Under the pieces are notes generated by a model, which did no database searches, had not been told where the DNA came from, and worked only from the letters and a program-made list of their open reading frames with translations. Shown here piece after piece: positions 5,562-54,121 of a stretch of DNA of 54,206 nucleotides. The DNA is from a virus (lineage: Duplodnaviria > Caudoviricetes), in the IMG/VR virus record IMGVR_UViG_3300023174_000215, positions 1-54,206 of that record. One strand, 5' to 3'. The translations under genes and the position numbers were made by a program. How positions within the stretch are numbered: the stretch's first letter is position 1; each line of letters starts with the position of its first letter.

Positions 5562-5597
5562 AAAGAAGCCCCTAGCTAATTAGCTAGGGGCTCTTTT
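5562..5597. terminator. Bidirectional intrinsic terminator at the strand-convergence point
   Basis: Perfect palindrome AGCCCCTAGCTA-AT-TAGCTAGGGGCT with A-rich and T-rich flanks. Confidence 0.85.
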
Positions 5598-5605
5598 ATG
5601 TAGTT

Positions 5606-7639
5606 TTATATGTTGTCTTTAATTAGTTTTACTTCACAGTAATCTGTGGTGCAGTATTGTTCTCCGATTGCATCACTAGCCATACCAGCATAGACACCAG
5701 CAAAGTCGATAGGGAAGAGAGTCATCTTGTACTCTTCATACTCTTCTTGAGTAATCTGAGTGTAGGGCATCTGAGGATAAACATGATTGCCTGACGGAAG
5801 AAACGAAACAGTCTTTAGCTGACCGTCGTACATATGAAGAGCGGTTCCAACATCTTTGCTTTCAGTCTCAGTATTAAATGAGATTGTTACAGAGACAGAG
5901 TTATCTGACCAGTAGCGTTGTGCTGTTGCAGCAAGCGCCATTTTTTCATAGATAGAAACTTCTTTCTCTGAACGAACAGCGTTGGACTCAACAGGAAAGA
6001 ACACTACTAAGGTTGTCTCAGGTGACTCACTCGCTGGTTCTACACGATAGTTAGCCATCTTAAAGAGAGGGAGCATTGGGTCAGAGTTAGCAAAACGAAT
6101 AGCACGAAGGAAGTGCTTACCGCCAACAGGCCAATGAACTCCAGGAGACTCTCCAGCTAAGATAGATACTGTGCCTGAAGGCTTAACAGTAGTCATTTTA
6201 ATAGACTCACGGATACCAAGCCACTCTGAATAAGACTTATCATAAGAGTTGATAGTTGCATATCCCTCGTCCATCCACTTACGAAGAACTGGTAATCCCT
6301 TATTATCTGCAAAGTTTGCAACGCCCGAAATTGATGTACCAATACGGCGGTTGCGTTGCATGATTGCGTTTGTCTCTTCCCAATGGGTAGGCAAGAGAGT
6401 AACAGTCTTAGCATAGAGATAAGCAAACTTGAGAGTGCGCTTGAAGTCATCTAAATTGTCATGACGATTGAGGTAAGTCTCTACCAATGTGCAGCACTCA
6501 AAGCTTTCTAATGATTGCTCAGCACATGGGTTGTATCCTGCAATACGCCAATCCTTGTTGTTCTCAGGGTCAGCAAGGCGACCATACTTCTTAGATACAT
6601 CCATCCAAATAACTCCTGGCTCACCATTACGGGCGATTCCATCCACGATTGCAGATAGGTCATCGCCCACATTTACTGATACAGAGTTGTTACTCATCCA
6701 AGCCCAACCTGGGCTCTTAGCATCATATGAATTACGGGCGGGAAATCTTTCAGGGTTCTTTAGATTAAGGAAGTCTTGGTCATCCAAGCGACCCATTAAG
6801 AGTTCAGCAGAACGACGAACGTTGCCACTAACGACGCACACACCGATAAGATTACCGAGGTCAGCAATATCCACACGACTAAGCTTTTCACCTGCACGTC
6901 CTCCAAAGATTCTATTAACATGACCGTGTAAACGGATTAAAGGTTCTGCTCCTGCTGCTGTACCACCAAATGTTTTGATTGGTTCGCCCGCTGGACGGAT
7001 TCCTTTGTAATCAAATACTGGAGCTTTCGTATCTGGTCTGAGGTAGGAATTGATGAGGGCTGCGGTGCTCTCGACCCAGCCTTCTCGGGTGTCGGGGATG
7101 ACATATGGTTCTCCTTGTAATGGTTCATAAATATTAAAATCTTTATCGGCGCCTTTATCGTCAAAGCCAACTCCCACGCCAAGCATGGAGGCTTCCATTA
7201 AGAAAGCAAAAGGCTTAGCTGGGTCAGTCTTGGTCATAGAACCCGTCGACACAAACGCACAGTTCTGCAAAGCAGCAGAGTTCTTCTGCTCATTTACTAG
7301 GGGCGTTCCCATTACCCATAGACCTCTACCTGGTGGTGTCCACTTTAACTGGAACAAACGGTCAAAAGCTTCTTTAGCTGAGGCTTGAGCCTTGGCATCA
7401 TTCCACGGAAGTCGGTTGGATTTAGCGTGGTCTTTCTGCAACGAGTACATGCCATTGATGACCCGCTCACATACATCGACCCAAGTCTCCTTGGTTCCAT
7501 CTTCTTTAAGTCTTGAATAGGTACGAAGGAAGGTTATCTCCCCCACCGAATTACCTGCCGCATCTTGATATCCCCAAGGAACTTTCTTCTCTCGATATGT
7601 GCTAAGAAAGTCTTCTGCCAAACGAAACGACAAGGCCAT
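5606..7639 (-). CDS. nrdJ: Class II (adenosylcobalamin-dependent) ribonucleotide reductase, RTPR-like
   Basis: PPGRGLW, LQNCAF, SGNVRRSA, NPCAEQ, KPSGTVS, C-terminal CxxxxC; no beta subunit adjacent. Confidence 0.95.
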   Translation of the reverse strand: MALSFRLAEDFLSTYREKKVPWGYQDAAGNSVGEITFLRTYSRLKEDGTKETWVDVCERVINGMYSLQKDHAKSNRLPWNDAKAQASAKEAFDRLFQLKWTPPGRGLWVMGTPLVNEQKNSAALQNCAFVSTGSMTKTDPAKPFAFLMEASMLGVGVGFDDKGADKDFNIYEPLQGEPYVIPDTREGWVESTAALINSYLRPDTKAPVFDYKGIRPAGEPIKTFGGTAAGAEPLIRLHGHVNRIFGGRAGEKLSRVDIADLGNLIGVCVVSGNVRRSAELLMGRLDDQDFLNLKNPERFPARNSYDAKSPGWAWMSNNSVSVNVGDDLSAIVDGIARNGEPGVIWMDVSKKYGRLADPENNKDWRIAGYNPCAEQSLESFECCTLVETYLNRHDNLDDFKRTLKFAYLYAKTVTLLPTHWEETNAIMQRNRRIGTSISGVANFADNKGLPVLRKWMDEGYATINSYDKSYSEWLGIRESIKMTTVKPSGTVSILAGESPGVHWPVGGKHFLRAIRFANSDPMLPLFKMANYRVEPASESPETTLVVFFPVESNAVRSEKEVSIYEKMALAATAQRYWSDNSVSVTISFNTETESKDVGTALHMYDGQLKTVSFLPSGNHVYPQMPYTQITQEEYEEYKMTLFPIDFAGVYAGMASDAIGEQYCTTDYCEVKLIKDNI

Positions 7640-7755
7640 TTTTCCTTCTCTCTATTAAATAATCGTCTCCAAAAATCGGAGAGGTTGATAGTGTAACTGA
7701 CCTGACCCTAATCTACAGGCCCACCACTTTGCAACTCTAGGGAGTACACCTGTTC

Positions 7756-7782
7756 ATGCGATAAATCACACTCTTATCGCAT
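7756..7782. promoter_or_regulatory. 9-bp inverted repeat upstream of nrdJ (operator or weak terminator)
   Basis: ATGCGATAA-N9-TTATCGCAT. Confidence 0.4.
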
Positions 7783-7792
7783 ACAAGTTTTG

Positions 7793-9274
7793 TTACTGGT
7801 CTTCTATAGATTGTTGAATAATACGAGTTGTTTGTTCTTCATTTAACCCGTTATCTGGTAGCTCGCGGAGTGCTTGTGCCTTGTCTCCAAAGATAGAACT
7901 AAGTACTCCAGCACCGCCTTGGCGTTCAACTGTCATGCGAATAAACTCTCGTGAATCATCTAATTCTTTAGTAGTTTTAATTAACTTAAACAGTCGGTCA
8001 ATCTCCTGCGAAACATTGGGGTCTGCGTATCCACCGTTCATTTCTTCGGTAAAACGCATGAAAGCAACGCGTTGTCCCTGCATTTCAATGATTGCGTTAA
8101 TCAAACTCTTTAGTTGGTCTTTAGTCTTTACTTCAATAGGAAGCTTGAATGCACATACACTTTGGGGTTTAAATGCAGGGCAGTTAGAAGCTACAAAACA
8201 TGTATCGCATTGACGTAAACTAGTGTCTTGTGACTGCACAACAGATACATCTTTAATGACATCATTACCTGTTTCATCTTGCTCTACAACTGACTTATAG
8301 GTGTATCCAAAGACGGGTAAATTGCCCATTTCTTCTGGATTTCGGGGTTCAAGTTTCCGCATCCCACCCCCCTTGTTATCGTTATGTGCAGGAGTAGTTT
8401 CCCCACTTTGCTCCACTTCACTCCACTCGTTGTTATCGTGTAACAGTGCGTCATCTTCGTTACCGTGCATGTTGTTTAACCTCGCTTCAAGTTGTTCAAA
8501 TGACCATACTGCTAATCGACACACCTCTTGTGGGTCGTCTTCCATAATCAAGTCATAGCTTAGACCAGCTTTATCATAGATAGCGCTGTACCTAACTCGG
8601 GCTTGTTCTTTCATCTTCTTGGGGTATCGAACTAATCTTGTTCCGTCCCAGATAATAGTTTCACCGTGCAACATGGGTGCTATCCACGACAGGCTACTAG
8701 CTGATTCAACCTTGACCTGCCTGAGGTTGTCAGGCTTAGCGGTATTGATAGCGTGGAACCTGGTGCCGTATTTATTAAAATAAGTCTTGGTTACTGAGGA
8801 TAGTTGGGTCTCGTATTCAATATCATCGCCCATAATTCCTATGTCCAGGTAGGACTCAACCATAGCCTTGAGGCCTTCAGGGCCCGTCTGGGACTGCCAG
8901 ATAGGTTGGAACTTACCTGGAGGTACCTCGGCCCAACAAGTACGCCGTTGCTCCTCTACGAAGGCTGGGTCAAGTGTTGGATGGGTTACTTCATTAAAGG
9001 TAGTAAGGCGGTCAATGTTATTAGCAACGAACTCTTCATATCCTGCTGCAAACTCTTCAAATTCATTTGGCCCCAGTTTTTCAACTTTGGGAATACCAGC
9101 ATGGACATAGATGTGGGTGTCTTTGCTGAAGTAGTTTTCTAATAGATAGACCTTAGTCTTAGGCAACCCGCGTTTAACAAGGCGCCAATAGCTCACGCCA
9201 ACGTGGTTGGCTGTGGTTGTCTCAAGGAGGGTGCGGTTAGAAGGAACCTCAGCACCCAGATATATCAGTTTCAA
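7793..9274 (-). CDS. Large hypothetical protein: possible degenerate TGT/DpdA-like barrel, Cys4 cluster and helical C-terminus
   Basis: ORF is secure; fold inferred from VSYW, YVHAG, RFHAI, SASSLSW..HG and CDTC-x5-C-x8-C. Confidence 0.45.
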   Translation of the reverse strand: MKLIYLGAEVPSNRTLLETTTANHVGVSYWRLVKRGLPKTKVYLLENYFSKDTHIYVHAGIPKVEKLGPNEFEEFAAGYEEFVANNIDRLTTFNEVTHPTLDPAFVEEQRRTCWAEVPPGKFQPIWQSQTGPEGLKAMVESYLDIGIMGDDIEYETQLSSVTKTYFNKYGTRFHAINTAKPDNLRQVKVESASSLSWIAPMLHGETIIWDGTRLVRYPKKMKEQARVRYSAIYDKAGLSYDLIMEDDPQEVCRLAVWSFEQLEARLNNMHGNEDDALLHDNNEWSEVEQSGETTPAHNDNKGGGMRKLEPRNPEEMGNLPVFGYTYKSVVEQDETGNDVIKDVSVVQSQDTSLRQCDTCFVASNCPAFKPQSVCAFKLPIEVKTKDQLKSLINAIIEMQGQRVAFMRFTEEMNGGYADPNVSQEIDRLFKLIKTTKELDDSREFIRMTVERQGGAGVLSSIFGDKAQALRELPDNGLNEEQTTRIIQQSIEDQ

Positions 9275-9726
9275 ACCCGTGGGTCTTCCTTTAGCATTTC
9301 CATCTGCTTATCCATCTCTTCTTCGATGGCTTTCCAACTACGAACGCCTTGGCGTCCATCTGGACGAAATTCTGGGCGCAAATAATTAGGGTGTAGAAAC
9401 AGTAAGGTGTCTATGCCTTGCTCTAGTAATTCTTTGGCAAGTTCAACATTGGCTGTAACTACTAGTTCTACTTTACCTTGTGAGCGACAGTACTTAACCT
9501 GTTCTAGCTCTGGGTTTTCTAAAATACCTGGTGCGGTGTTATCTACCAAGTCATCATAAGTATTTACTTTGTGCTCTAATAACCAGCGGTGTGTTTTTTC
9601 TTTTTCTTCTGATAGTAAAACTACACGCATATCTTCGCTGAACATGCGGTATAGCGCCATGCCCGCATAGATAGGGGAGTTGGAATTATGGCGTAATACG
9701 CCATCGACAAACATTACAATTGCCAC
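9271..9726 (-). CDS. HAD-like protein with degenerate motif I
   Basis: N-terminal IVMFVDGVL resembles DxDGVL; VVLLS motif II-like strand. Confidence 0.55.
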   Translation of the reverse strand: MAIVMFVDGVLRHNSNSPIYAGMALYRMFSEDMRVVLLSEEKEKTHRWLLEHKVNTYDDLVDNTAPGILENPELEQVKYCRSQGKVELVVTANVELAKELLEQGIDTLLFLHPNYLRPEFRPDGRQGVRSWKAIEEEMDKQMEMLKEDPRV

Positions 9727-9753
9727 AATGTATTTCTCCGTATAGTTAGTTTA

Positions 9754-10662
9754 CTATTTAGATGATATTGCTCTGCGAATCAGAACCCTAGCATCTGGAA
9801 GTTCCATACCGTAGGTCTGGGACTCAAACTCTTGACGTGTCTTTTTAGACAAATCTTTTAACTGTTTTAGTGCTTGTACAACTCCTGATGACTTACCTGC
9901 CTGCCAACGGTAGTTAGAGTAGTCTAAATAACCCTGTCCGCTTTGGCTAAACGCAGCATTTCTTCCATGATGTATATCTTCAAACAAAGCCGCGCCTTGT
10001 TCAATAGATAGTTTAAGTGCAGCTTCAGCGTTGCGTCGTGCAGCATCTGTTGTTGCTGTACCAATCTTAGATAACGCTTCTGAATAACGGGTCAGAATTT
10101 CAACCGCCATATTTTCATCGCGGGTTACTTTGCGTTCCCAATCTCTACCAACTGTTACTGTTAGATTCTGTGGTTCAACAGTCCAATCATCATCAGTTAA
10201 TGAATATGCAGCGTAAGGTTTGATGTTACGGATATCCGTCTGAACATTGACATAGAATGTAAGCTCAAATGCGCCCATGAACTCTTCAGTTTTTGGGTGC
10301 AGGTCTTCACGGAAATTTTCATTAAACATATCCGCAATCTCTTTATCACTAAAGCCCGCATATTTTGTATTCGATTGGCGGAAGCGAATGTAATCAACTC
10401 CTACAAGACAATCTAAATCTGCTGGACTACGATTAGCGGCCCATTGAAACGATACGCCTGAACCCGCTATCCAAGCGTGAACGTAAGCTTCAGGGTTGTA
10501 ATAGTTGTTGCGAAGGTGTTCAAATAAAATACGAAGGATGCCATCACGGACGCTACCAACCATTTGGTTATCACGGAATAGGCGTGGGTCTAACCCAGCT
10601 TGGGGGTTACTAAAGTAGGAGGTTTCTGAAGGCTCTACTGTTACAGCCTCATATAAACTCAT
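9754..10662 (-). CDS. Pol-beta superfamily nucleotidyltransferase
   Basis: IAGS...ADLDCLV signature; third acidic residue in FELTFY; helical C-terminal domain. Confidence 0.8.
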   Translation of the reverse strand: MSLYEAVTVEPSETSYFSNPQAGLDPRLFRDNQMVGSVRDGILRILFEHLRNNYYNPEAYVHAWIAGSGVSFQWAANRSPADLDCLVGVDYIRFRQSNTKYAGFSDKEIADMFNENFREDLHPKTEEFMGAFELTFYVNVQTDIRNIKPYAAYSLTDDDWTVEPQNLTVTVGRDWERKVTRDENMAVEILTRYSEALSKIGTATTDAARRNAEAALKLSIEQGAALFEDIHHGRNAAFSQSGQGYLDYSNYRWQAGKSSGVVQALKQLKDLSKKTRQEFESQTYGMELPDARVLIRRAISSK

Positions 10663-10669
10663 TTAGTTA

Positions 10670-10888
10670 TTATAGTTCTTTTTCTTTCTTTTCCTTGTAC
10701 ATAATGTCAGATTCAAACTCAAATTTGCGATGCTTTTCTGGAGCATCGACAGCAGTTTTTGTCATAAAACCACACGCTTGATGTGCACCAACAAATTGTT
10801 GCGCCCATAAAACAGCCAGCGTTTCGTTTTCCTCAACATCAATTTGAAAAGATGCCATGCACGTGCAAGACATTTCGATGAACGCCAT
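10670..10888 (-). CDS. Small putative metal-binding protein
   Basis: CxC...HxxC. Confidence 0.65.
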   Translation of the reverse strand: MAFIEMSCTCMASFQIDVEENETLAVLWAQQFVGAHQACGFMTKTAVDAPEKHRKFEFESDIMYKEKKEKEL

Positions 10889-10912: not shown

Positions 10913-11197
10913 TTACAGTATACCCCTGTCAGATAGGGCTTGAAGTATTGAACTGGCCGTGGCTTTCTCGTTTGGGGTCGCTGCGGCAATCATTTCGGCA
11001 ACAATAATGTTGCTTAATTCTGAGTTTTTAACCACCTCTAGGATGTCTTGACACCCGTGCTTTACGTCCGCATTTGTCGCTTTACGCCCAATTTTTAAGG
11101 GCGCATCCATACTGGTAGTGGCATAAAACGACCCATCTGGGCGCTTTACGATTAAAAAGGCTGTTTCAACCTCTTCAGGTTCTTTAGCCTTAGCCAT
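10913..11197 (-). CDS. Hypothetical protein
   Basis: TAATG coupling to upstream gene. Confidence 0.75.
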   Translation of the reverse strand: MAKAKEPEEVETAFLIVKRPDGSFYATTSMDAPLKIGRKATNADVKHGCQDILEVVKNSELSNIIVAEMIAAATPNEKATASSILQALSDRGIL

Positions 11198-11763
11198 TAG
11201 CTATACAGACCCTGTTGCTTAAAGGCTTTCTCTTGGACTACGGACTTAACTGGGCAGTAATCACAAAGGTAGACCTTTGGTCCGCTACTTTCCTTTTCTA
11301 ACCCTGCATCTAAACGCTCTTTGGCTGTATCAGCTTTAAGAAGCTTTTTATCACTTTTGTAATCGCCACAATCTTTAGTTTGCTTGTGTGCAATCCAACA
11401 AGTCATTGCATCTGCTGTAAAATTCTCTTTAGTTGCATAGAAATTGGTACCAAAAATATCTAAACCCTGGGCACCTTCTTGAATCTGCTTCATAATGCCT
11501 TCTTTTACCTTTGGAATAATCCAAAAACGAACAGGCAAATAATAGATAACGCGGTCATCGCGGTTGGTGCACCCTTTATCAATGTGCTGGTCTACAAAGA
11601 AACGTAGGGCCTCATCAAATTCAACGGTGTTCTCTCCGCCTTCTGGGCCAGAGTAACCAGGGATTTCATCAATAGTCTTGCACTTAAGGCACTTCATCAA
11701 GCGCATCATTGGTTCATTAGGGTCGACTTTTGCGCTCTTTAAAGTGGAAAGGTCAAGTGTCAT
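11197..11763 (-). CDS. Cys-rich hypothetical protein
   Basis: AAGGAG RBS; CxxC at both ends plus CxxxH. Confidence 0.8.
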   Translation of the reverse strand: MTLDLSTLKSAKVDPNEPMMRLMKCLKCKTIDEIPGYSGPEGGENTVEFDEALRFFVDQHIDKGCTNRDDRVIYYLPVRFWIIPKVKEGIMKQIQEGAQGLDIFGTNFYATKENFTADAMTCWIAHKQTKDCGDYKSDKKLLKADTAKERLDAGLEKESSGPKVYLCDYCPVKSVVQEKAFKQQGLYS

Positions 11764-12536: not shown

Positions 12537-12749
12537 TTAAAACCCCAAATCTGAAGCACAAGACTCACACACACGGCCTTGACCTGCGTAATCTTGTGCA
12601 CCTTTGTTACCGCAATTGTCACATTTCCATTTTGGATTGTCATTTCCTGTGACAGTTTCGTTTTCCCAAGTTTTCATGGCTGTTTTAGACAAAGAAGTAT
12701 GGGGAGCACGTTTTGTATCGTTAGCACGGTCTGGAACTAAATTAGCCAT
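12537..12749 (-). CDS. Small Zn-ribbon protein with DRAND leader
   Basis: MANLVPDRANDTKR; CxxC..CxxC. Confidence 0.75.
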   Translation of the reverse strand: MANLVPDRANDTKRAPHTSLSKTAMKTWENETVTGNDNPKWKCDNCGNKGAQDYAGQGRVCESCASDLGF

Positions 12750-12751
12750 AA

Positions 12752-12958
12752 TTAACCTACGGGATTTACTTTAGATGGCTCTTCTGAGTTGATGAAACCA
12801 TAGTTCATATATGGATGTAGTCCAGCGCGATTCTTTACAACATCTTGGTCACCCATACCTGGGATTACTGTTGTATTTGGACGGCGCTTGCGATATTTGC
12901 CATCTGTTGCGCCTTCTAAAAGCGATGCGTTCTGTGAACGTGATGCGTTTACTGTCAT
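12752..12958 (-). CDS. Hypothetical protein
   Basis: Start moved to ATG 12958 (MTVNASRS) after AAGGAA. Confidence 0.75.
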   Translation of the reverse strand: MTVNASRSQNASLLEGATDGKYRKRRPNTTVIPGMGDQDVVKNRAGLHPYMNYGFINSEEPSKVNPVG

Positions 12959-12968
12959 GTGGGTTCCT

Positions 12969-13166
12969 TTACCAAGTTCCTGTGTTAAATGTTGCTTGTG
13001 ATTCGGCTGCTTTTTGTCCAGCAGTAGGACTCCAATCAACATTACGTCCAGGAGCAAAGGCTCCTGCATCGTGTCCTGCTTGAATCTGTGACCACTTGTT
13101 GTTCTCTACTGCTTTGGCGGCACCTTTGGCAACACGTCGGTCATTAAATGATTTAAGTAGATGCAT
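12969..13166 (-). CDS. Small hypothetical protein
   Basis: AAGGA RBS. Confidence 0.7.
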   Translation of the reverse strand: MHLLKSFNDRRVAKGAAKAVENNKWSQIQAGHDAGAFAPGRNVDWSPTAGQKAAESQATFNTGTW

Positions 13167-13175
13167 TATTTGTCC

Positions 13176-13361
13176 TTACCAAACACTTGAATCGTTTTTA
13201 CGAACAGGTTGTTCGCTTGAAAGATTGTTTGCGCTAAAAGAGGTTTTTCCTTTGTTAAACGCAGCAGTACGAGCTTCTCGTGCGTTGTTGTTTTGGCTTT
13301 TAGTAACGGCATTGTTAGTAAGCCGAGATAAACCAGCATCTAATTTTTTAAAAACGCCCAT
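13176..13361 (-). CDS. Small basic hypothetical protein
   Basis: Start moved to ATG 13361 (MGVFKKL), TAATG coupling. Confidence 0.7.
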   Translation of the reverse strand: MGVFKKLDAGLSRLTNNAVTKSQNNNAREARTAAFNKGKTSFSANNLSSEQPVRKNDSSVW

Positions 13362-13588
13362 TATGCCATCCGTCCTTTGAGTAGCTTTGCTGACTTCCTG
13401 CGTAAACAGGTTGAGCAGAGTTCTGCGTGTAATGATTGTACTGGATTTAGTAGTGTTCCACACTCAATACATGGCTTAGAACCGTTGTATTGGGTCTTTA
13501 ATTCGCGCTGAGTAGATAGGCGGACGTCTTCTGCCCCTGCCATACCTTCTCCAGTTGAGTCGGTAAATAGCCCTGGGTCATTCTTCAT
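13361..13588 (-). CDS. Small Zn-finger protein
   Basis: Start ATG 13588 (MKNDPGL); CxxC..CxxC. Confidence 0.7.
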   Translation of the reverse strand: MKNDPGLFTDSTGEGMAGAEDVRLSTQRELKTQYNGSKPCIECGTLLNPVQSLHAELCSTCLRRKSAKLLKGRMA

Positions 13589-13712
13589 TTTTTGACGCCT
13601 TTTCTTTTGCTTCAACAGCCTCTGTCATAGGAACCCATTTTTTAGGGTCTTTTATATCAGGAAACCGATTAACAATAATATCGTTATGAAAATCTTTTTT
13701 ATTACGTCCCAT
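13578..13712 (-). CDS. 44-aa protein (not in ORF track)
   Basis: MGRNKKDFHNDIIVNRFP...; TAATG coupling. Confidence 0.6.
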   Translation of the reverse strand: MGRNKKDFHNDIIVNRFPDIKDPKKWVPMTEAVEAKEKASKNEE

Positions 13713-14020
13713 TATCGCCCCTCAAATAACTTTCCCTCAGAGCTAGCTTTAATAAAAGCTGCTGCTCTTGACTCTGCTTTACCCATATTTTGTTTAAACT
13801 TACTAAGTTTTCCTTTAATTGGAAAAGTACGAATTTCTCCTGTGCTGTCAGCTTGGCCTTCAACTACTGCTTTAGGAACAGTAGTACCTTTATCAGTATA
13901 GTGCTCAGTTGATACAACAGTTTGTCCGTTACCAGATGGCTTAAGTTTTCCGCCAATTTTTTCTGCTTTTTTTACCGCTTTACGTGCTCCAGCAGAAAGC
14001 GTTGTTGATTTTTTTGACAT
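13712..14020 (-). CDS. Lys-rich basic protein
   Basis: AGGAGGAG RBS, TAATG coupling. Confidence 0.75.
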   Translation of the reverse strand: MSKKSTTLSAGARKAVKKAEKIGGKLKPSGNGQTVVSTEHYTDKGTTVPKAVVEGQADSTGEIRTFPIKGKLSKFKQNMGKAESRAAAFIKASSEGKLFEGR

Positions 14021-14376
14021 TAGACGGCTCCTCCTAAGGCGTTACGACTTGAACTCTGCGGTGTGTTAGGGCTTTGGCTAAAGTCAGACTCTACACGCTG
14101 TTGTGAGCGTCCTGGTAGCTCAATTATGTCTTCAATACTTATTTCAGTATCGGTGTAACCATACTTCTCTGGAAATAGTTTAATCTGAGGCATAGGTGGG
14201 CGTACATATTGTTGGATTTCTTCGCCCGACATTGAGTTAACGGCCAATGATTGGCTGAGTAGACGTTCTTGATTAGATTGAAATGGCCCAATGTATGCCT
14301 GTGGTGGGTAAGCAGCCTCTGGAGGTGCTTGCCATGGTTTGCGGGAGTAAACACCGTCTGCGCTTCTACCTGGCAT
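14020..14376 (-). CDS. Pro/Gln-rich hypothetical protein
   Basis: Abuts upstream gene. Confidence 0.75.
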   Translation of the reverse strand: MPGRSADGVYSRKPWQAPPEAAYPPQAYIGPFQSNQERLLSQSLAVNSMSGEEIQQYVRPPMPQIKLFPEKYGYTDTEISIEDIIELPGRSQQRVESDFSQSPNTPQSSSRNALGGAV

Positions 14377-14916
14377 TTATTTCCAATTCGGTGATAGTGA
14401 ACTAAGTCGCTTAGCTCGGTTGAGGTTAACGCCCATAGGTGAGTCACTCTTTGCAGCAGGACCTGCTTTACCGTCGTTAGGTAAGTGTGGAGCTGGTGCT
14501 AGATGTTGTGCATCTGCATTTCTCTTTGATAGGTATACATTACCTTCTTGAACAGATTTCATTTGGCGCCGAATTCCACGAGCATTATCTAATCCTTCTG
14601 GATAGTAATAACTTGATTGGTCAATGCGCTCGCCTTTGTGAACACCGCGTTGGTAACCGCGTTGTCCAATACGAATTTTAAGTGAATCTAAAACATTTTC
14701 TGATGTAGAACCTGGACGACCACGGTCATCACGACGAGTTCTAATTGTTCCGAGATAGCCATCTGGATACTCTGCGGAAGGTTGGCGTCCAACACCAAGA
14801 CGAAGGAAATCTAATTCGCTTCGTGCAACAGGAACACCGCCACCACCATAATTGGTATTGGTTCCATACATCCCAGCAGCGCCGAGATTTTGAATGTTTT
14901 GATGTGGTCCTGGCAT
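14377..14916 (-). CDS. Gly/Arg-rich hypothetical protein, probably leaderless
   Basis: TATAAT lies 6 nt before ATG, no SD. Confidence 0.8.
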   Translation of the reverse strand: MPGPHQNIQNLGAAGMYGTNTNYGGGGVPVARSELDFLRLGVGRQPSAEYPDGYLGTIRTRRDDRGRPGSTSENVLDSLKIRIGQRGYQRGVHKGERIDQSSYYYPEGLDNARGIRRQMKSVQEGNVYLSKRNADAQHLAPAPHLPNDGKAGPAAKSDSPMGVNLNRAKRLSSLSPNWK

Positions 14917-14930
14917 GACTACATTATAGG

Positions 14931-16103
14931 CTAGCGAAACCCACCTAGTACTACTAACTCACGACGGGCATCAAATCCTTCACCAACTACTAAAGATGTG
15001 ATTCCTGGATGAGATTCAAGGCCTGATTTATCTCTAAACCAAGCTGACCCGTTATCCATTGCAGGGTTCTGGATGAACAATCGCATACCAACGCTTTGAA
15101 CATCGTAATGGTGCAAGTGTCCAACATTGAGTATGTCAGCGTTTGCTACTGAACAACGACCCATTACCTGACCTGACCACCACTTCACCATATCTCGTGC
15201 TTGGTGTCCGTGTGCCATTCCGTACAGAGTTCCACTCAAGTTAACGGCAAGGGTGCTGTCATCTTTGGCTGGATATCTAAACTCAACTCTGTCTTTAAGG
15301 AACTCATTTTCTAAACACGCATCTTCTACAGCGCGAACAATCTCAATCTGCCAGGAATCTTCTGGGCGAGATACCAAGAAACGCTGGACTTCATCGTGGT
15401 TACCTGGAACCACGGGAACAATAATCTTTGATGCAAACGGTGCCATAGCTTTAATTTGATTCATAAGGATACGGCGTCCTACTTGTACTTGTTGGGCTAC
15501 GCCAATATCGTGACGCCCCATAACTTTACCTTTTTGGCTTGTCATACCTTCAATGCAATCACCCAATTGGGGTAGTGCAATCTGCCCAATTTTATATTTA
15601 CTTTGTAAAAACTTATGGTGCTCTACTGCTTCTGCAAAGGAACGCAGCACTCTATCTACAATAGCTGGCGTGTCATCTTTACCGTACTGGGTATCTCCAA
15701 GGCTGTATACAGCTGTTAAGTCTCCCTCAAAATCTATTGAACTTTCTGGGCGCCAATTCATCATTGATTCAATAAGTTTTTCCGCATCAAAATCATTTTC
15801 TATTGAAGACTTAACGGGAACAACGTTAATTTTAAATGATTCTAGCCATTCTCCGTCATATCGTTGCCAACGTGAGCGCCTATGTGATGTAACTGCCCAC
15901 TCATTAGGGTCTAAATTTGCTTCTCTAATAATCTCTTCTGCACCTGGAGTGTTGCCATCAGGTCGTGGTGTTGAAACAATAAATCCGCCATCATTACCAA
16001 TTTCAGAACGTGGTCTCCACGCATCTGGAATGTCTTTCATAATATTGTCGGAACCTTCTTGGCCCGCTTTTGTAAAATCATTAAATTCATCTTTTATGGA
16101 CAT
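14931..16103 (-). CDS. Calcineurin-like metallophosphoesterase
   Basis: GDTQ, LGDCIEG, PGNHDE, HGHQ, GHLHH motifs; ATG 16103 preferred over TTG/ATG alternatives at 16112. Confidence 0.88.
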   Translation of the reverse strand: MSIKDEFNDFTKAGQEGSDNIMKDIPDAWRPRSEIGNDGGFIVSTPRPDGNTPGAEEIIREANLDPNEWAVTSHRRSRWQRYDGEWLESFKINVVPVKSSIENDFDAEKLIESMMNWRPESSIDFEGDLTAVYSLGDTQYGKDDTPAIVDRVLRSFAEAVEHHKFLQSKYKIGQIALPQLGDCIEGMTSQKGKVMGRHDIGVAQQVQVGRRILMNQIKAMAPFASKIIVPVVPGNHDEVQRFLVSRPEDSWQIEIVRAVEDACLENEFLKDRVEFRYPAKDDSTLAVNLSGTLYGMAHGHQARDMVKWWSGQVMGRCSVANADILNVGHLHHYDVQSVGMRLFIQNPAMDNGSAWFRDKSGLESHPGITSLVVGEGFDARRELVVLGGFR

Positions 16104-16312
16104 GAGCACCATCGTTTTCTGTGGCTTTTAAATGCGGTAAGTCCGCAATTTAGGTCTTCAAATTTTTTGTTAAAAAATCTGTGTAAACTAGCAGTTGATG
16201 CATTACTGTTTAAAAGCTCAATGATTTCACTCTTTGATGGTTCTTCTTGTTCTGATACCCATAATCCCAAAAGACAATAGTTTTTTTGATTGGAATACAT
16301 GAGGTTCTTCAC
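16094..16312 (-). CDS. Small helical protein ending HRKRWCSCP
   Basis: Overlaps the phosphoesterase start; HRxxxCxC end. Confidence 0.6.
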   Translation of the reverse strand: MKNLMYSNQKNYCLLGLWVSEQEEPSKSEIIELLNSNASTASLHRFFNKKFEDLNCGLTAFKSHRKRWCSCP

Positions 16313-50338: not shown

Positions 50339-50650
50339 TCAAACTGGAGGTGCTGGCACTACTTCCCATTGGCAAGTATCTTCATTCAAAACCCAATTGC
50401 CTTCTTCAGGTTTTGGCGCAATAAATGCATCTCTTGTAGAATCATAAGTGTCCCCTTTTCCTGCGTAATTTTTACGTAAAGGTACTCCACCTAATGCGTG
50501 AACCCCTGCATTTGTATTATAACTAGTCTTAATCCAAGTGCCACCAAGGTTATCTATTAACCATTGGTAGCCTTCATCAGGTTCGTTATTGTCACCAACA
50601 AGCACCCTAACAACTTTTTTATTTTCATCAATTTCTGCCCAATGGCTCAT
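50339..50650 (-). CDS. Small fibre-partner protein, copy 2
   Basis: Start ATG 50650 (MSHWAEIDE); TSYN...RKNYAG.G.TYD..RDAFI.PKP. Confidence 0.75.
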   Translation of the reverse strand: MSHWAEIDENKKVVRVLVGDNNEPDEGYQWLIDNLGGTWIKTSYNTNAGVHALGGVPLRKNYAGKGDTYDSTRDAFIAPKPEEGNWVLNEDTCQWEVVPAPPV

Positions 50651-52347
50651 GTTAAGTACCTCACAATTACAATACCTGAACCGCCAGTGCCACCTTCTCC
50701 TTGACGTTGAATACCCGTGTTCCAAAAAGCTCCCGCAGCACCGCCACCACTTCCAGTATTTGCTGTTGCATTACCGCCAGTACCAGGGTTTGAACACGAA
50801 CAAGCGGCACCAAAACCACCAGAGCCGCCACCGCCCGTACCACCTACACCACCGCATTGACCTCTACCACCAGCACCACCGCCACCGCCAGCATATTTAC
50901 CACCTACGCCAGTTCCAGTTGCAGATGCCCATGTTGAATAGGCACTATGACCAACACCACCATCACCACCTCTTCGCGGCAGTGATACGGGGTAACCATT
51001 ACTAAGTGCACCTCCACCGCCACCCCTAGCACAATAAGCGGTTCCGCTACATGAACCAGGTCCGTAGCCGTTGGCTGAATAACCACTACATGTTGGTGAT
51101 GATGCTGTGGTTGAACCAAAACTTGTTGCGCTTCCTACTCTGCCACCAGGAAAACTTACATTTGAAACCGCACCGCCAGCGCCAATTGTAACTGTTTGAT
51201 TAGAAGAAACTGTAGTTGTAATAAGGACTGTTTGTCCTGAACCTGCTCCTGGATAAGGACCTTGGTTACCAGCACAGGGGCCAAATCTACTTCTGCCTCC
51301 ACCCATACCGCCACCAATAATAAGTACATCACATGATTTAGAACCAGCGGTAACAGTAAAAGTTCCATTAGCAGTAAAGGTGTGGTAGGTATAACTTCCA
51401 GAGGTTGCAGTTGTTCCACCACTTACAGTAAATGGCGCAAATGGAGTTACTGAGTTAGATGCGCTGGATGCTGCAGAAGTTCCGTTAGCGTTTGTGGCAG
51501 TTACGGTAAATGTGTAAGCCGTTCCGTTAGACAAACCTGAAACTGTAATAGGAGAAGCGCCTGTACCAGTAAATCCACCAGGAGAAGAAGTTGCTGTATA
51601 TGCAGATACTGTTGCACCACCAGTGGCATTTGCTGTGTATGTAACCGTTGCACTTGCATTACCAACAGTAGCAGTTCCAATAGTTGGAGCCTGTGGAACA
51701 GAAGAAGGAGTTACAGAGTTAGAGGCAGAAGATGCTGCAGATGTTCCATTAGCATTTGTTGCTGTAACAGTATATGTACGAGCAGTTCCAGAACCTACAG
51801 TTTCAGAAACAACAATAGGACTGGAAGCACCTGTTCCAGTTAATCCTGAAGAAGAGGTAACTGTATAGCCCGTAATAGCAGAGCCACCAGTAGCGGGTGC
51901 AGTAAAAGTAACTGAAGTATTGGCAGAGCCAGAGTAGGCCTGACCAGTGGACATGGTTGCTGTACCAATAGTTGGGGCGTTTGGAACTGTTGTAGCAGTA
52001 ATAGAGTTTGAGGCGCCAGATTGAATACCAGCTACGCTAGTAGAGGTAACACCAGTGGCTTGAAAAGTATAGGCAGTAGCAGATTGTAGACCAGTAACTG
52101 TTAAAGGAGATGTTCCAGAGGCGGTAAAAGAACCTGGGCTTGAAATAACGTTATATGTAGAAGGAGTACCACCAGTTGCAGCTGCTGTAACTGTAACTGT
52201 TGCTGAACCATTGTTGTAGGCACGTGAGGTACCCACATTTGCCGCTGTTACTGATGGTGCATCTGGAAAGTCCATAATCTCAGTTAAAGCTGCGAGACCG
52301 TCGGGTGTTCCTTCGATGCGCTCATCTTGTGCTCTGCGGATAGACAT
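50647..52347 (-). CDS. Tail fibre/virion protein: FN3-like repeats + glycine-rich domain
   Basis: Three APTIGTAT...YTFTVTATN.NG.S..S..SNS-type repeats; GGxGGSG-rich C-terminus ending GIVIVRY. Confidence 0.8.
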   Translation of the reverse strand: MSIRRAQDERIEGTPDGLAALTEIMDFPDAPSVTAANVGTSRAYNNGSATVTVTAAATGGTPSTYNVISSPGSFTASGTSPLTVTGLQSATAYTFQATGVTSTSVAGIQSGASNSITATTVPNAPTIGTATMSTGQAYSGSANTSVTFTAPATGGSAITGYTVTSSSGLTGTGASSPIVVSETVGSGTARTYTVTATNANGTSAASSASNSVTPSSVPQAPTIGTATVGNASATVTYTANATGGATVSAYTATSSPGGFTGTGASPITVSGLSNGTAYTFTVTATNANGTSAASSASNSVTPFAPFTVSGGTTATSGSYTYHTFTANGTFTVTAGSKSCDVLIIGGGMGGGRSRFGPCAGNQGPYPGAGSGQTVLITTTVSSNQTVTIGAGGAVSNVSFPGGRVGSATSFGSTTASSPTCSGYSANGYGPGSCSGTAYCARGGGGGALSNGYPVSLPRRGGDGGVGHSAYSTWASATGTGVGGKYAGGGGGAGGRGQCGGVGGTGGGGSGGFGAACSCSNPGTGGNATANTGSGGGAAGAFWNTGIQRQGEGGTGGSGIVIVRYLT

Positions 52348-52385: not shown

Positions 52386-52670
52386 TTAAGGGGCGACTTC
52401 TACCCAGCGGCAAGTTGTTTCGTCTAACTCCCAATCGCCTTCTGTTGGCTTAGGAGGAATAAATGCATCACGAGTTGAATCATAGGTAAAGCCAATACCT
52501 GCATAGTTCTTACGGATGTTGCCGTGATAAGAAGTACGCTTACATACTTGACCACGGAAATTTCCATACCAAGTTTCAGTATCTAAACCTTCAATTAATT
52601 CGGTCTCATCAATGCCTGTAATAACCTCGGTTACTACATTACTCTCATCTAAGAACGCATAGTGTGCCAT
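52386..52670 (-). CDS. Small fibre-partner protein, copy 1
   Basis: Start ATG 52670 (MAHYAFLDE), TAATG coupling; paralog of 50339-50650. Confidence 0.75.
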   Translation of the reverse strand: MAHYAFLDESNVVTEVITGIDETELIEGLDTETWYGNFRGQVCKRTSYHGNIRKNYAGIGFTYDSTRDAFIPPKPTEGDWELDETTCRWVEVAP

Positions 52671-54121
52671 TATGCCCAACTCACATTTCCTGTGCCAGCA
52701 GTAATAGTTGCTCGCTTATAACCACCTGAAGCCGCACTTTCACTGCCTGTTAAACCTGCTCCAATAGTGATTGTTTTAGTATCTGGATATCTAAGGATAA
52801 CAACTCCAGAACCACCTGCTCCACCGTCATAGGTGTTTCCAGAAGAATTGTTACGGGTACCACCACCACCACCGCCACCTTTGTTTGGTGTTCCACTATC
52901 TGATGTTTGATTTTGTACAGAAGCACCGCCACCGCCTCCGCCACCACCACCTGGAGATTGATTACCAACATTTCCTACACCGCCTCCGCCACCGCCTGCA
53001 TAAGCAATAGAAGAACCAGTAATTTCAATAGAAACACCTGAACCGCCAGCGCCACCACTGCTTGCGCCGCCAGCGCCACCAACCGCTCCTGCCCCACCAC
53101 CACCACCTGATGCTCCATACCCGCTACCGCTACCCGCACCACCAGCAAATCCTTGATTAGTAGTACCAGTGCCGCCAGCATAACCGCCATTACCTCCGCC
53201 ACCGCCTGAACCACCACTAACACCAGCAGCGGTGCTTCTTGAAGCACCACCACCAGTAGATGTAATTGTACTAAATACAGAGGGATTACCATTTGTAGCG
53301 GTTGTTCCTGAAATTCCAGCACTTCCACCGCTACCAACAGTAACAGTGTAGTTAGTAGAAGGGCTAAGAGTTAATGCTGTTTCTAATGTTCCGCCACCTC
53401 CTGTTGCGGTAACTGTTGAGCGAAGTCCACCTGCGCCACCACCGCCACCAGGGCCATAAGCGCCGCCACCGCCGCCTGCAACAACAAGGTAGTCAACAGC
53501 AAATGTAAATGTAGAAGTTACTGAGTTACTTGCTGCACTTGATGCAGAGTTACCATTAGCATTAGTTGCTACAACTGTATATGTGTAAGAACCACCAACA
53601 GTCTCAGTAATAGTAATAGGTGAAGATGCGCCAGTTGCAGTAACGGCTGAAGATGATGTCACTGTGTAGCCAGTAATTGCTGAACCACCAGTAGCAGCAG
53701 ATGCAGTAAATGGTACTGAGACAACACCAGATGTACCACCAGTAGCAGTACCAATAGTAGGAGCCTGTGGAACAGTGGTCGCTGTAATGCTAGAAGATGC
53801 GCTTGAAGCAGGACCAGTAGCAGTTGTATTAGTAGCAGTAACTGCAAATGTATAAGATGTGGCGCTTTGTAGACCTGTAACAGTCAATGGAGAACCAGCA
53901 CCAGAAGAGGTAAATGAGCCAGGAGTAGAGGTAGCTGTATAAGAGGCAGGAGTACCACCAGTTGCCGCTGCTGTGAAAGCAACAGTTGCAGAGCCATTAT
54001 TATAGGCTCTAGATGTGCCTACATTTGTAGCAGCGCCAATAGTGGGTGCATCAGGTACATCAGGGATAGCCACACCGCTCTTGGTGATGCCTGATGTATT
54101 AGCACGCTTGATATTAGCCAT
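52670..54121 (-). CDS. Tail fibre/virion protein: FN3-like repeats + glycine-rich domain
   Basis: Two FN3-like repeats; VDYLVVAGGG...GGSGVVILRYP. Confidence 0.8.
   Translation of the reverse strand: MANIKRANTSGITKSGVAIPDVPDAPTIGAATNVGTSRAYNNGSATVAFTAAATGGTPASYTATSTPGSFTSSGAGSPLTVTGLQSATSYTFAVTATNTTATGPASSASSSITATTVPQAPTIGTATGGTSGVVSVPFTASAATGGSAITGYTVTSSSAVTATGASSPITITETVGGSYTYTVVATNANGNSASSAASNSVTSTFTFAVDYLVVAGGGGGAYGPGGGGGAGGLRSTVTATGGGGTLETALTLSPSTNYTVTVGSGGSAGISGTTATNGNPSVFSTITSTGGGASRSTAAGVSGGSGGGGGNGGYAGGTGTTNQGFAGGAGSGSGYGASGGGGGAGAVGGAGGASSGGAGGSGVSIEITGSSIAYAGGGGGGVGNVGNQSPGGGGGGGGGASVQNQTSDSGTPNKGGGGGGGTRNNSSGNTYDGGAGGSGVVILRYPDTKTITIGAGLTGSESAASGGYKRATITAGTGNVSWA

Follow-up and report, generated by a model that had tools for sequence, protein, structure and literature searches.

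Is a phage protein that bears the name of a base-exchanging enzyme still an enzyme, and if not, what could it be kept for? The question is raised by a 493-residue protein encoded in IMG/VR record IMGVR_UViG_3300023174_000215 (Duplodnaviria; Caudoviricetes). The entire 54,206-base virus record, with a CheckV completeness of 56%, was analysed and is called the window below. The protein is encoded together with a Cys-rich protein of 188 residues (U188), a nucleotidyltransferase (NTase) and an HAD-like protein, and these four are referred to as the module (Table 1). It is a relative of the DNA-modification enzyme DpdA, in a family from which the catalytic nucleophile has gone. Our tentative answer, to which we give somewhat less than an even chance, is that U188, the HAD-like protein and this dead DpdA form a non-catalytic DNA-binding or scaffolding unit inherited as core genes.

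The 493-residue protein has no match in Pfam, and in PHROGs it belongs to phrog_887, 'queuine tRNA-ribosyltransferase' (E = 1.1e-48). A scan of 1.84 billion cluster representatives (50%-identity clusters, E up to 0.001) returned 784 relatives, and 93 full-length representatives with 26–77% identity were aligned. None of these 93 matches Pfam TGT (tRNA-guanine transglycosylase) or DUF6610 at E up to 0.1, and sequence and profile searches of the PDB with the family found neither TGT nor DpdA. The TTG start codon is consistent with the N-terminus of the family, MxLYFxGAE. The AlphaFold model obtained from the 93-member alignment has a mean predicted local distance difference test score (pLDDT) of 81. 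It consists of a barrel (residues 1–270, pLDDT 93–98), a linker with values under 50 at residues 276–308 and 317–323, and a tail (about 66–90) in which a Cys cluster is combined with long helices (residues 385–412, 419–440 and 479–491). The four cysteines of the cluster, C356-x2-C359-x5-C365-x8-C374, are invariant in 93/93 sequences, and the tail helices carry a GGYxDPN motif.

The best Foldseek match of the model is Cap10 in the Cap10-CdnD complex (PDB 9ntn, E = 2.6e-5), followed by TGTs and DpdA (7ui4). Profile comparison with hhalign aligned the family to gp021 of Bacillus phage BCD7 over 259 columns (99.87%, E = 1.6e-31), and to a set of six DpdA1 proteins (99.66%, E = 3e-25), one of which, that of phage 9g, is an experimentally studied DpdA. 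The barrel of BCD7 gp021 itself leads by tblastn to the DpdAs of phage 9g, of the Seuratvirus and Nipunavirus types, and others. With the TGT of Escherichia coli, profile comparison gave only a local, DSG-centred alignment (E = 0.18), and BLASTP of the BCD7 DpdA against this TGT gave no match. Judged from these alignments, the protein is a true relative of DpdA, probably descended from a long-form phage DpdA. A TGT/DpdA-like TIM barrel with substituted catalytic places had been proposed in the initial annotation, and the structural and profile comparisons agree in supporting it.

BCD7 gp021, a long-form DpdA of 757 residues, has the same barrel as the window protein and belongs to the same PHROG family. 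The Cys4/helical tail is also common to the window protein, BCD7 gp021 (its last ~130 residues) and Bacteroides phage BS162P1 (tblastn E = 6e-8 and 1e-9), which carries a split form of the long DpdA. The DpdA1 proteins (phage 9g, Seuratvirus type) and bacterial DpdA (PDB 7UI4) have a homologous barrel, but DpdA1 is only ~300–317 residues long and is devoid of the linker and of the Cys4/helical tail.

In bacterial DpdA (PMC10164549), Asp95 acts as the general acid/base, Asp130 and His181 read the base, and the nucleophilic residue is Asp256; activity is abolished by D95A and by D256A. The residues D72-S73-G74, D118, H141, H196 and D215-S216-x-x-W219 are invariant in the six-protein DpdA1 set. 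Asp215, from the DSSSW motif, aligns with position 193 of the present family in the hhalign comparisons with both DpdA1 and BCD7. The window protein has a serine at this position, H58-A59-G60 in place of DSG, T97 in place of Asp, and Q127 in place of His, so that the acid/base, base-reading and nucleophilic Asp of DpdA1 are replaced by H, T and S, respectively. The histidine of the HG motif is kept as H174. Likewise, BCD7 gp021 retains DSG, ELD, HG and the nucleophilic Asp (in GDSTTW), whereas the window protein has HAG, EVT and SASSLSW.

The 93 representatives have S (43), A (14), G (14) or T (12) at position 193, and Asp once (P0265). In 160 copies from the loci described below, the position is occupied by S (103), A (40), H (9), G (4), T (3) or L (1), and never by Asp. 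With one Asp in 93 and none in 160, the entire family of ~490-residue proteins can be regarded as lacking the nucleophile. Other residues of the barrel are kept in the family: G7, E9, R14, H174, W197, G204-E205-T206 and R226. In the clade of the window (68 distinct sequences), position 58 is H (44), Y (18), N (4), S (1) or I (1) and in no case Asp, and position 59 is mostly P (50) or A (15). Positions 97 and 127 are at the 83rd and 93rd percentiles of column entropy in the barrel, and G60, H174, W197 and E205 are invariant (68/68). This clade has lost the guanine-reading residues (DSG, Asp97, His127) in addition to the nucleophile. As the residues expected of an active enzyme were missing in three tests, the protein was not classed as a DpdA or TGT enzyme.

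The source of the base was also examined. Profile searches for QueC, PTPS (QueD), GTP cyclohydrolase I and Pfam TGT, the positive controls of which passed in named genomes, gave no match in five records, namely four IMG/VR relatives at CheckV 100% (two with terminal repeats) and Streptomyces phage BRock; QueE was outside this search. In the window itself neither Pfam TGT nor QueC was matched, as anticipated from the absence of preQ0 genes in the initial annotation. The gene of BCD7 gp021, in contrast, lies directly beside those of FolE (GTP cyclohydrolase), QueC, QueE and QueD, and the window gene has different neighbours. Judging from these gene contents, the phage would have no 7-deazaguanine source of its own.

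The three genes initially described as adjacent and co-oriented are indeed all on the minus strand, at 10662..7793, and the motifs ascribed to them can be read directly: AGSG (G67, S68) and DLD (D82, D84) for the intact GS...DxD of the NTase, MFVDGVL with F6 at the place of the nucleophile in the HAD-like protein, and YVHAG (56–60) and SASSLSW (191–197) in the 493-residue protein, followed by the acidic linker, the CxxC-x5-C-x8-C cluster and the helical tail, which are found in both sequence and model. The predicted coupling of the last two genes holds for the 4-nt overlap but not for its letters, which are TTGA (TTG start, TGA stop) instead of ATGA.

In the loci with both genes, the stop of the HAD-like gene overlaps the start of the DpdA-like gene by 4 nt (48 loci) or 1 nt (19 loci), and the two genes appear to be translationally coupled. 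Motif I of the HAD-like protein, F6-V7-D8 in the window, is degenerate in 42/42 aligned relatives: Asp never occupies the first place, and at +2 the residue varies among D, E, N, S and W. The best PDB match of the profile is the HAD protein 3u26, a weak one (E = 0.23, 52 residues). Atlas features gave a weak score of 0.88 to two HAD clusters, and a single member of the 42 matches Pfam Hydrolase_6 (E = 0.061). Thus the proposed loss of the catalytic Asp stands, while the proposed HAD fold is weakly supported; the protein would be a pseudo-HAD if its fold is that of HAD. It is 34% identical to BRock gp38. A complex prediction with the 493-residue protein gave no answer (score 0.00, mark 0.32) and is evidence neither way.

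U188 is homologous to BRock gp42. It has conserved CxxC, DAMxC, CxDY and LCDYCP motifs and six conserved cysteines in three pairs or near-pairs, and it probably binds metal. PHROGs contains no match for U188, and Pfam, NCBIfam and PADLOC contain none for the four proteins of the module. BRock-type phages have an endolysin gene between those of the Cys-rich protein and the NTase, and an extra gene for a protein of ~300–390 residues, without family match, between the HAD-like and DpdA-like genes.

The NTase has the catalytic motif hG[GS]x(9-13)DxD. Among 53 homologues with 30–89% identity, S68, D82, D84 and E133 do not vary, and A66 and G67 hardly do. The model (pLDDT 87) shows the α/β core of NTases (about residues 36–165) followed by a helical bundle (173–300). 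Both the motif and this layout are shared with MNT, HI0073, aminoglycoside NTases, CCA-adding enzymes and the CD-NTases (cGAS/DncV-like nucleotidyltransferases). Sequence and profile searches of the PDB found no NTase, and the best Foldseek match has an E-value of 0.033; weak rows include CCA-adding enzymes (E = 0.055–0.13) and CdnE, CdnD and CdnG (E = 0.09–0.3). The first ~28 residues, with the peptide YFSxPxxGLDPxLF, are unstructured in the model, yet F17, L24, D25 and P26 are invariant, and this segment could be a docking peptide. No counterpart of this peptide or of an HxGRxxAF...NYRWQ motif was found in known Pol-beta NTases. BCD7 gp015 (named 'nucleotidyltransferase') and gp020 were considered as relatives of the window NTase, and comparison showed them to be unrelated.

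Linkage was examined in 82 loci of close relatives, where misses fall at contig ends, and in 80 more diverse loci with 32–57% identity to a query from the BRock side (Table 1). The expected linkage of the three genes was observed in 78–80 of the 82 close loci and extends to distant relatives. The composition of the unit differs from what had been supposed, namely a single NTase accompanied by two pseudoenzymes. Of the 79 diverse loci with an upstream flank, 18 have no NTase (18 of the 19 NTase-less loci have the full upstream flank). It was not found anywhere in five of five complete genomes from NTase-less lines, whereas the same search detected it in five of five control genomes. In addition, U188 had been left out. 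The constant core consists of U188, the HAD-like protein and the dead DpdA, and the NTase is a dispensable, optional add-on. All 18 NTase-less loci keep an intact base pocket; these loci are interrelated, and nothing is deduced from the coincidence.

Streptomyces phages BRock and GiJojo have homologues of all four module proteins in the same order, with extra genes inserted (endolysin, gp37). The identities are 32% for the NTase (E = 4e-60), 34% for the HAD-like protein and 32% for the 493-residue protein. In BRock, the NTase and the 493-residue protein correspond to gp39 and gp36. The replication genes of GiJojo also follow the order of the window: DnaB, primase, helicase, PolA, recombinase and Cas4 exonuclease, then the module. 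With the order of the module genes kept in BRock and GiJojo, and that of the replication genes in GiJojo, the module is an ancient component of a single large lineage of phages, passed on vertically. BRock is a virulent 112.5-kb myovirus with a 221-bp terminal repeat (PMC7453282). In a complete relative of 95.7 kb with terminal repeats, the tRNA genes are limited to three (Leu-TAG, Met-CAT, Asn-GTT), all at the extreme ends of the record.

In contigs sampled at one genome per species, 12 of 13 family matches are in Actinomycetota, the carriers being Streptomyces, Kitasatospora, Nonomuraea, Saccharothrix, Terracoccus and Herbidospora. The 13th is on a 109,690-base contig binned as a Gemmatimonadales metagenome-assembled genome. 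This assignment may be wrong, as the size of the contig fits a whole phage genome of the lineage. Several members are embedded in actinomycete contigs that range from hundreds of kb to 7.6 Mb; one of them is found 4.39 Mb into a Streptomyces contig of the latter size. An IMG/VR relative has also been assigned to the proviruses. Although BRock was described as virulent, some phages of the lineage may integrate into their hosts or persist in them.

QTRT2, the non-catalytic subunit of the eukaryotic tRNA-guanine transglycosylase, is an example of a TGT fold that is no longer catalytic and is used for binding to a partner. QTRT2 pairs with a catalytic paralogue, whereas no catalytic TGT or DpdA was found in the four complete relatives or in BRock. 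In the scenario that we propose for the window, the ancestor would have been a long-form phage DpdA, and covalent base exchange would no longer be possible. Selection would retain the barrel as a scaffold, the Cys4/helical tail, and the two constant partners, U188 and the HAD-like protein. The 493-residue protein would keep the binding or scaffolding role of its ancestor, most plausibly on DNA, and would act in a complex with the HAD-like and Cys-rich proteins. The trio would be core genes of Actinomycetota myoviruses of ~95–116 kb, expressed at the end of a run of replication and nucleotide-metabolism genes, with the NTase as an optional addition. Several observations weigh against this scenario. 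The base pocket is mostly kept in the wider family (D58 in 61/93, S59 in 60/93, D97 in 78/93, H127 in 53/93 and H174 in 80/93), and the BRock-type proteins have D-S-G, D97 and H174. This points to ligand binding, perhaps even chemistry, in those members. Position 205 is acidic in 90/93 representatives and 153/160 locus copies, and could be a catalytic group that has moved. Finally, most lines have the NTase, with its motifs intact, and an enzymatic output of the module has to be reckoned with.

These same points favour a still active enzyme with changed chemistry, in which base exchange or glycosylase activity on DNA or RNA would depend on E/D205 or on a residue of a partner, and the group to be introduced might be produced or activated by the NTase. 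At position 205, A, S or Q is present in the DpdA1 proteins, the DSG, D97, H127 and H174 pocket persists in most of the family, and the NTase motifs are invariant. However, the BCD7 DpdA has both the nucleophilic Asp and the Glu; the Glu therefore predates the loss of the Asp and need not replace it. Moreover, the pocket has decayed in the clade of the window, the NTase is missing from entire lines that keep the remainder of the module, and the HAD-like partner is likewise without catalytic residues. We consider this reading unlikely. A slightly lower place is given to a role in packaging, as a DNA-recognition subunit resembling the small terminase or as a partner of the terminase, with barrel and tail bound to phage DNA and the pseudo-HAD and zinc protein as co-subunits. 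Taken alone, three of four tails resemble phrog_6902 'terminase small subunit', always at profile positions ~280–385, with E-values of 0.0018 (window), 0.0057 (BRock) and 0.09 (BS162P1). In five genome searches (BRock, one IMG/VR genome, BCD7, BS162P1 and a Streptomyces provirus), phrog_6902 matched only the tail domain (E = 4e-4 to 1e-2), each time through that part of the profile, and the annotation of GiJojo lists one 'terminase' and no small subunit. All of these matches are weak, however, and cover part of the profile only, and the Atlas match to the T5 small-terminase family (0.78) is at noise level. The module of GiJojo lies at ~99 kb, far from the terminase and portal genes at 25–31 kb, no strong phrog_6902 member was present in 401 sampled genomes of the host class, and the same tail is found on the BCD7 DpdA within a working preQ0 cluster. 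A related proposal is that a dead base-exchange enzyme was domesticated as a DNA-handling subunit that reads sequence or structure, either a small-terminase-like factor or a replication-coupled reader. The guanine-flipping pocket would first have served recognition and later become dispensable, the pseudo-HAD and the zinc protein would be obligate co-subunits, and the NTase would be an optional enzymatic arm. This, too, is put forward as an unlikely reading, with the same small probability as packaging.

A role on tRNA appears improbable. In such a role, the dead barrel would hold tRNA and the NTase would repair or extend its ends, both belonging to the tRNA toolkit that these phages carry. 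There are 29 tRNA genes in BRock (PMC7453282) and about as many or more in GiJojo, in a large array with tRNAs for Asp, Asn, His and Tyr among others, along with two RNA ligases and a Ro-like protein; the weak similarity of the NTase to CCA-adding enzymes points the same way. Yet the window has no tRNA gene and the complete close relative has three, the module sits among DNA-metabolism genes, and the nearest sequence relatives of the barrel are DNA-acting DpdAs and not tRNA TGTs. Still less probable is an anti-defence decoy or sponge, either a mimic of Cap10 that sequesters the deazaguanylated CD-NTase of type IV CBASS (cyclic oligonucleotide-based antiphage signalling system) or a pocket that soaks up a base-like signal. 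The top structural match of the barrel is Cap10 bound to a nucleotidyltransferase. In 10.1101/2025.04.06.647259, the TGT pocket of Cap10 is described as binding a protein-linked 7-deazaguanine. Cap10 (PDB 9NTN) resembles the window protein in having a TGT fold without the canonical Zn site and a Pol-beta-type NTase gene beside it, but it belongs to a host defence operon, keeps D73, S74, D122 and the catalytic D248/H226, and needs the QueC-like Cap9. In the window's clade the pocket residues that Cap10 needs are lost, no QueC-like gene was found, and the NTase is dispensable; it starts with MSLYEA... instead of the Gly-rich M(G/S)G(G/S)GG of type IV CD-NTases. PADLOC models match no member of the module. 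Furthermore, the genes are a vertically inherited core with fixed order across 26–78% identity, unlike typical accessory anti-defence genes. QTRT2 and Cap10 are the nearest analogies, and the window protein differs from both in its partners and in its residues. The roles suggested in the initial annotation (modification of tRNA, DNA or protein, RNA repair, anti-defence) are borne out by nothing in the analysis, and the non-catalytic DNA-binding or scaffolding unit remains our preferred reading.

Table 1. Features of the module and its surroundings in the window, with their occurrence in close and diverse loci.
Feature	Position (nt)	Strand	Close loci	Diverse loci	Remarks
Cys-rich 188-residue protein (U188)	11763..11197	-	76/82	76/80	
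94-residue protein	11197..10913	-	51/82		directly after U188; in part of the clade; no family match
72-residue Cys-containing protein	10888..10670	-	52/82		directly before NTase; sub-threshold Pfam match only
Pol-beta-superfamily nucleotidyltransferase (NTase), 302 residues	10662..9754	-	78/82	61/80	ATG start; accessory module member
HAD-like protein, 151 residues	9726..9271	-	80/82	79/80	GTG start; catalytic Asp pair missing
DpdA-like protein, 493 residues	9274..7793	-	80/82	79/80	TTG start; motifs read from translation
TGT/DpdA-type TIM barrel, residues 1–270 of the 493-residue protein	9274..8465	-			
Acidic linker, residues 271–323 of the 493-residue protein	8464..8306	-			predicted disordered
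C-terminal domain, residues 324–493 of the 493-residue protein	8305..7796	-			Cys4 at nt 8153-8209
Class II (B12-dependent) ribonucleotide reductase	7639..5606	-	67/82		Pfam RNR_Alpha 4.8e-29, RNR-II_ins_dom 1.8e-15
Terminator-like hairpin, two-way, strong	5566-5593	both			perfect 12-pair stem; T-runs on both strands

The window belongs to a contractile-tailed phage, as it encodes a tail sheath and the baseplate wedge and hub. Nearly all its genes are on the minus strand. Its replication genes encode a DnaB-like helicase, a primase, a helicase, a family-A polymerase, a UvsX-like recombinase, and Cas4-type and SbcD-type exonucleases. The module lies at the end of a minus-strand gene run. The next gene on the same strand after the 493-residue protein is the ribonucleotide reductase, which is a neighbour within the clade of the window only; in GiJojo it is located elsewhere, away from the module. 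Directly after the reductase, the terminator-like hairpin stands at the junction of minus- and plus-strand genes and ends the gene run of the module. The 153-nt gap between the 493-residue protein and reductase genes contains two small hairpins (window positions 7666-7790), one of them weakly terminator-like (7682-7666). No Rfam match was found in the window, and a megablast comparison of 20 kb from it with GenBank phages was likewise negative.

Upstream of the module, a run of small minus-strand genes (12537-16112, for example 14377-14916, 14020-14376 and 13712-14020) is without Pfam or PHROG family. These dark genes include those of a 179-residue and a 118-residue protein adjoining the SbcD-type exonuclease. 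By BLAST, several of the dark genes group into families that are common to the BRock-type Streptomyces phages, with their order kept, which suggests a conserved dark block larger than the module. No Pfam or PHROG family covers eight additional small genes in the block, nor two inserts of the BRock type. A 70-residue protein (12537-12749, minus strand) has two CxxC pairs (CDNC...CESC) and a sub-threshold match to a Pfam transposase zinc-binding family (E = 0.015). In the structural region, two adjacent minus-strand genes (50647-52347 and 52670-54121) encode proteins of 566 and 483 residues that both match phrog_2295, a PHROG without assigned function (E = 1.2e-12 and 4.1e-45), and that may be paralogues.

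Members of the 493-residue family are named 'queuine tRNA-ribosyltransferase' or 'dpdA-like tRNA-guanine transglycosylase' in GenBank, RefSeq and PHROGs, and this name is misleading. No literature on a DpdA family without nucleophile was found; the supplementary DpdA lists of PMC6884629 and PMC10516641, which were outside the search, may hold proteins of the BCD7 or BRock type. PMC6884629 notes only that singleton DpdAs may have diverged in function. DpdA has also been proposed as a signature protein for 7-deazaguanine in DNA (PMC10516641). Applied to the present phages, this rule would falsely predict modified DNA. As cultured members exist (BRock, GiJojo, LuckySocke, Alone3 and pSt2308), the function of the family can be tested experimentally. 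The family would represent a gene module built from two enzyme relics and kept under selection as core genes.

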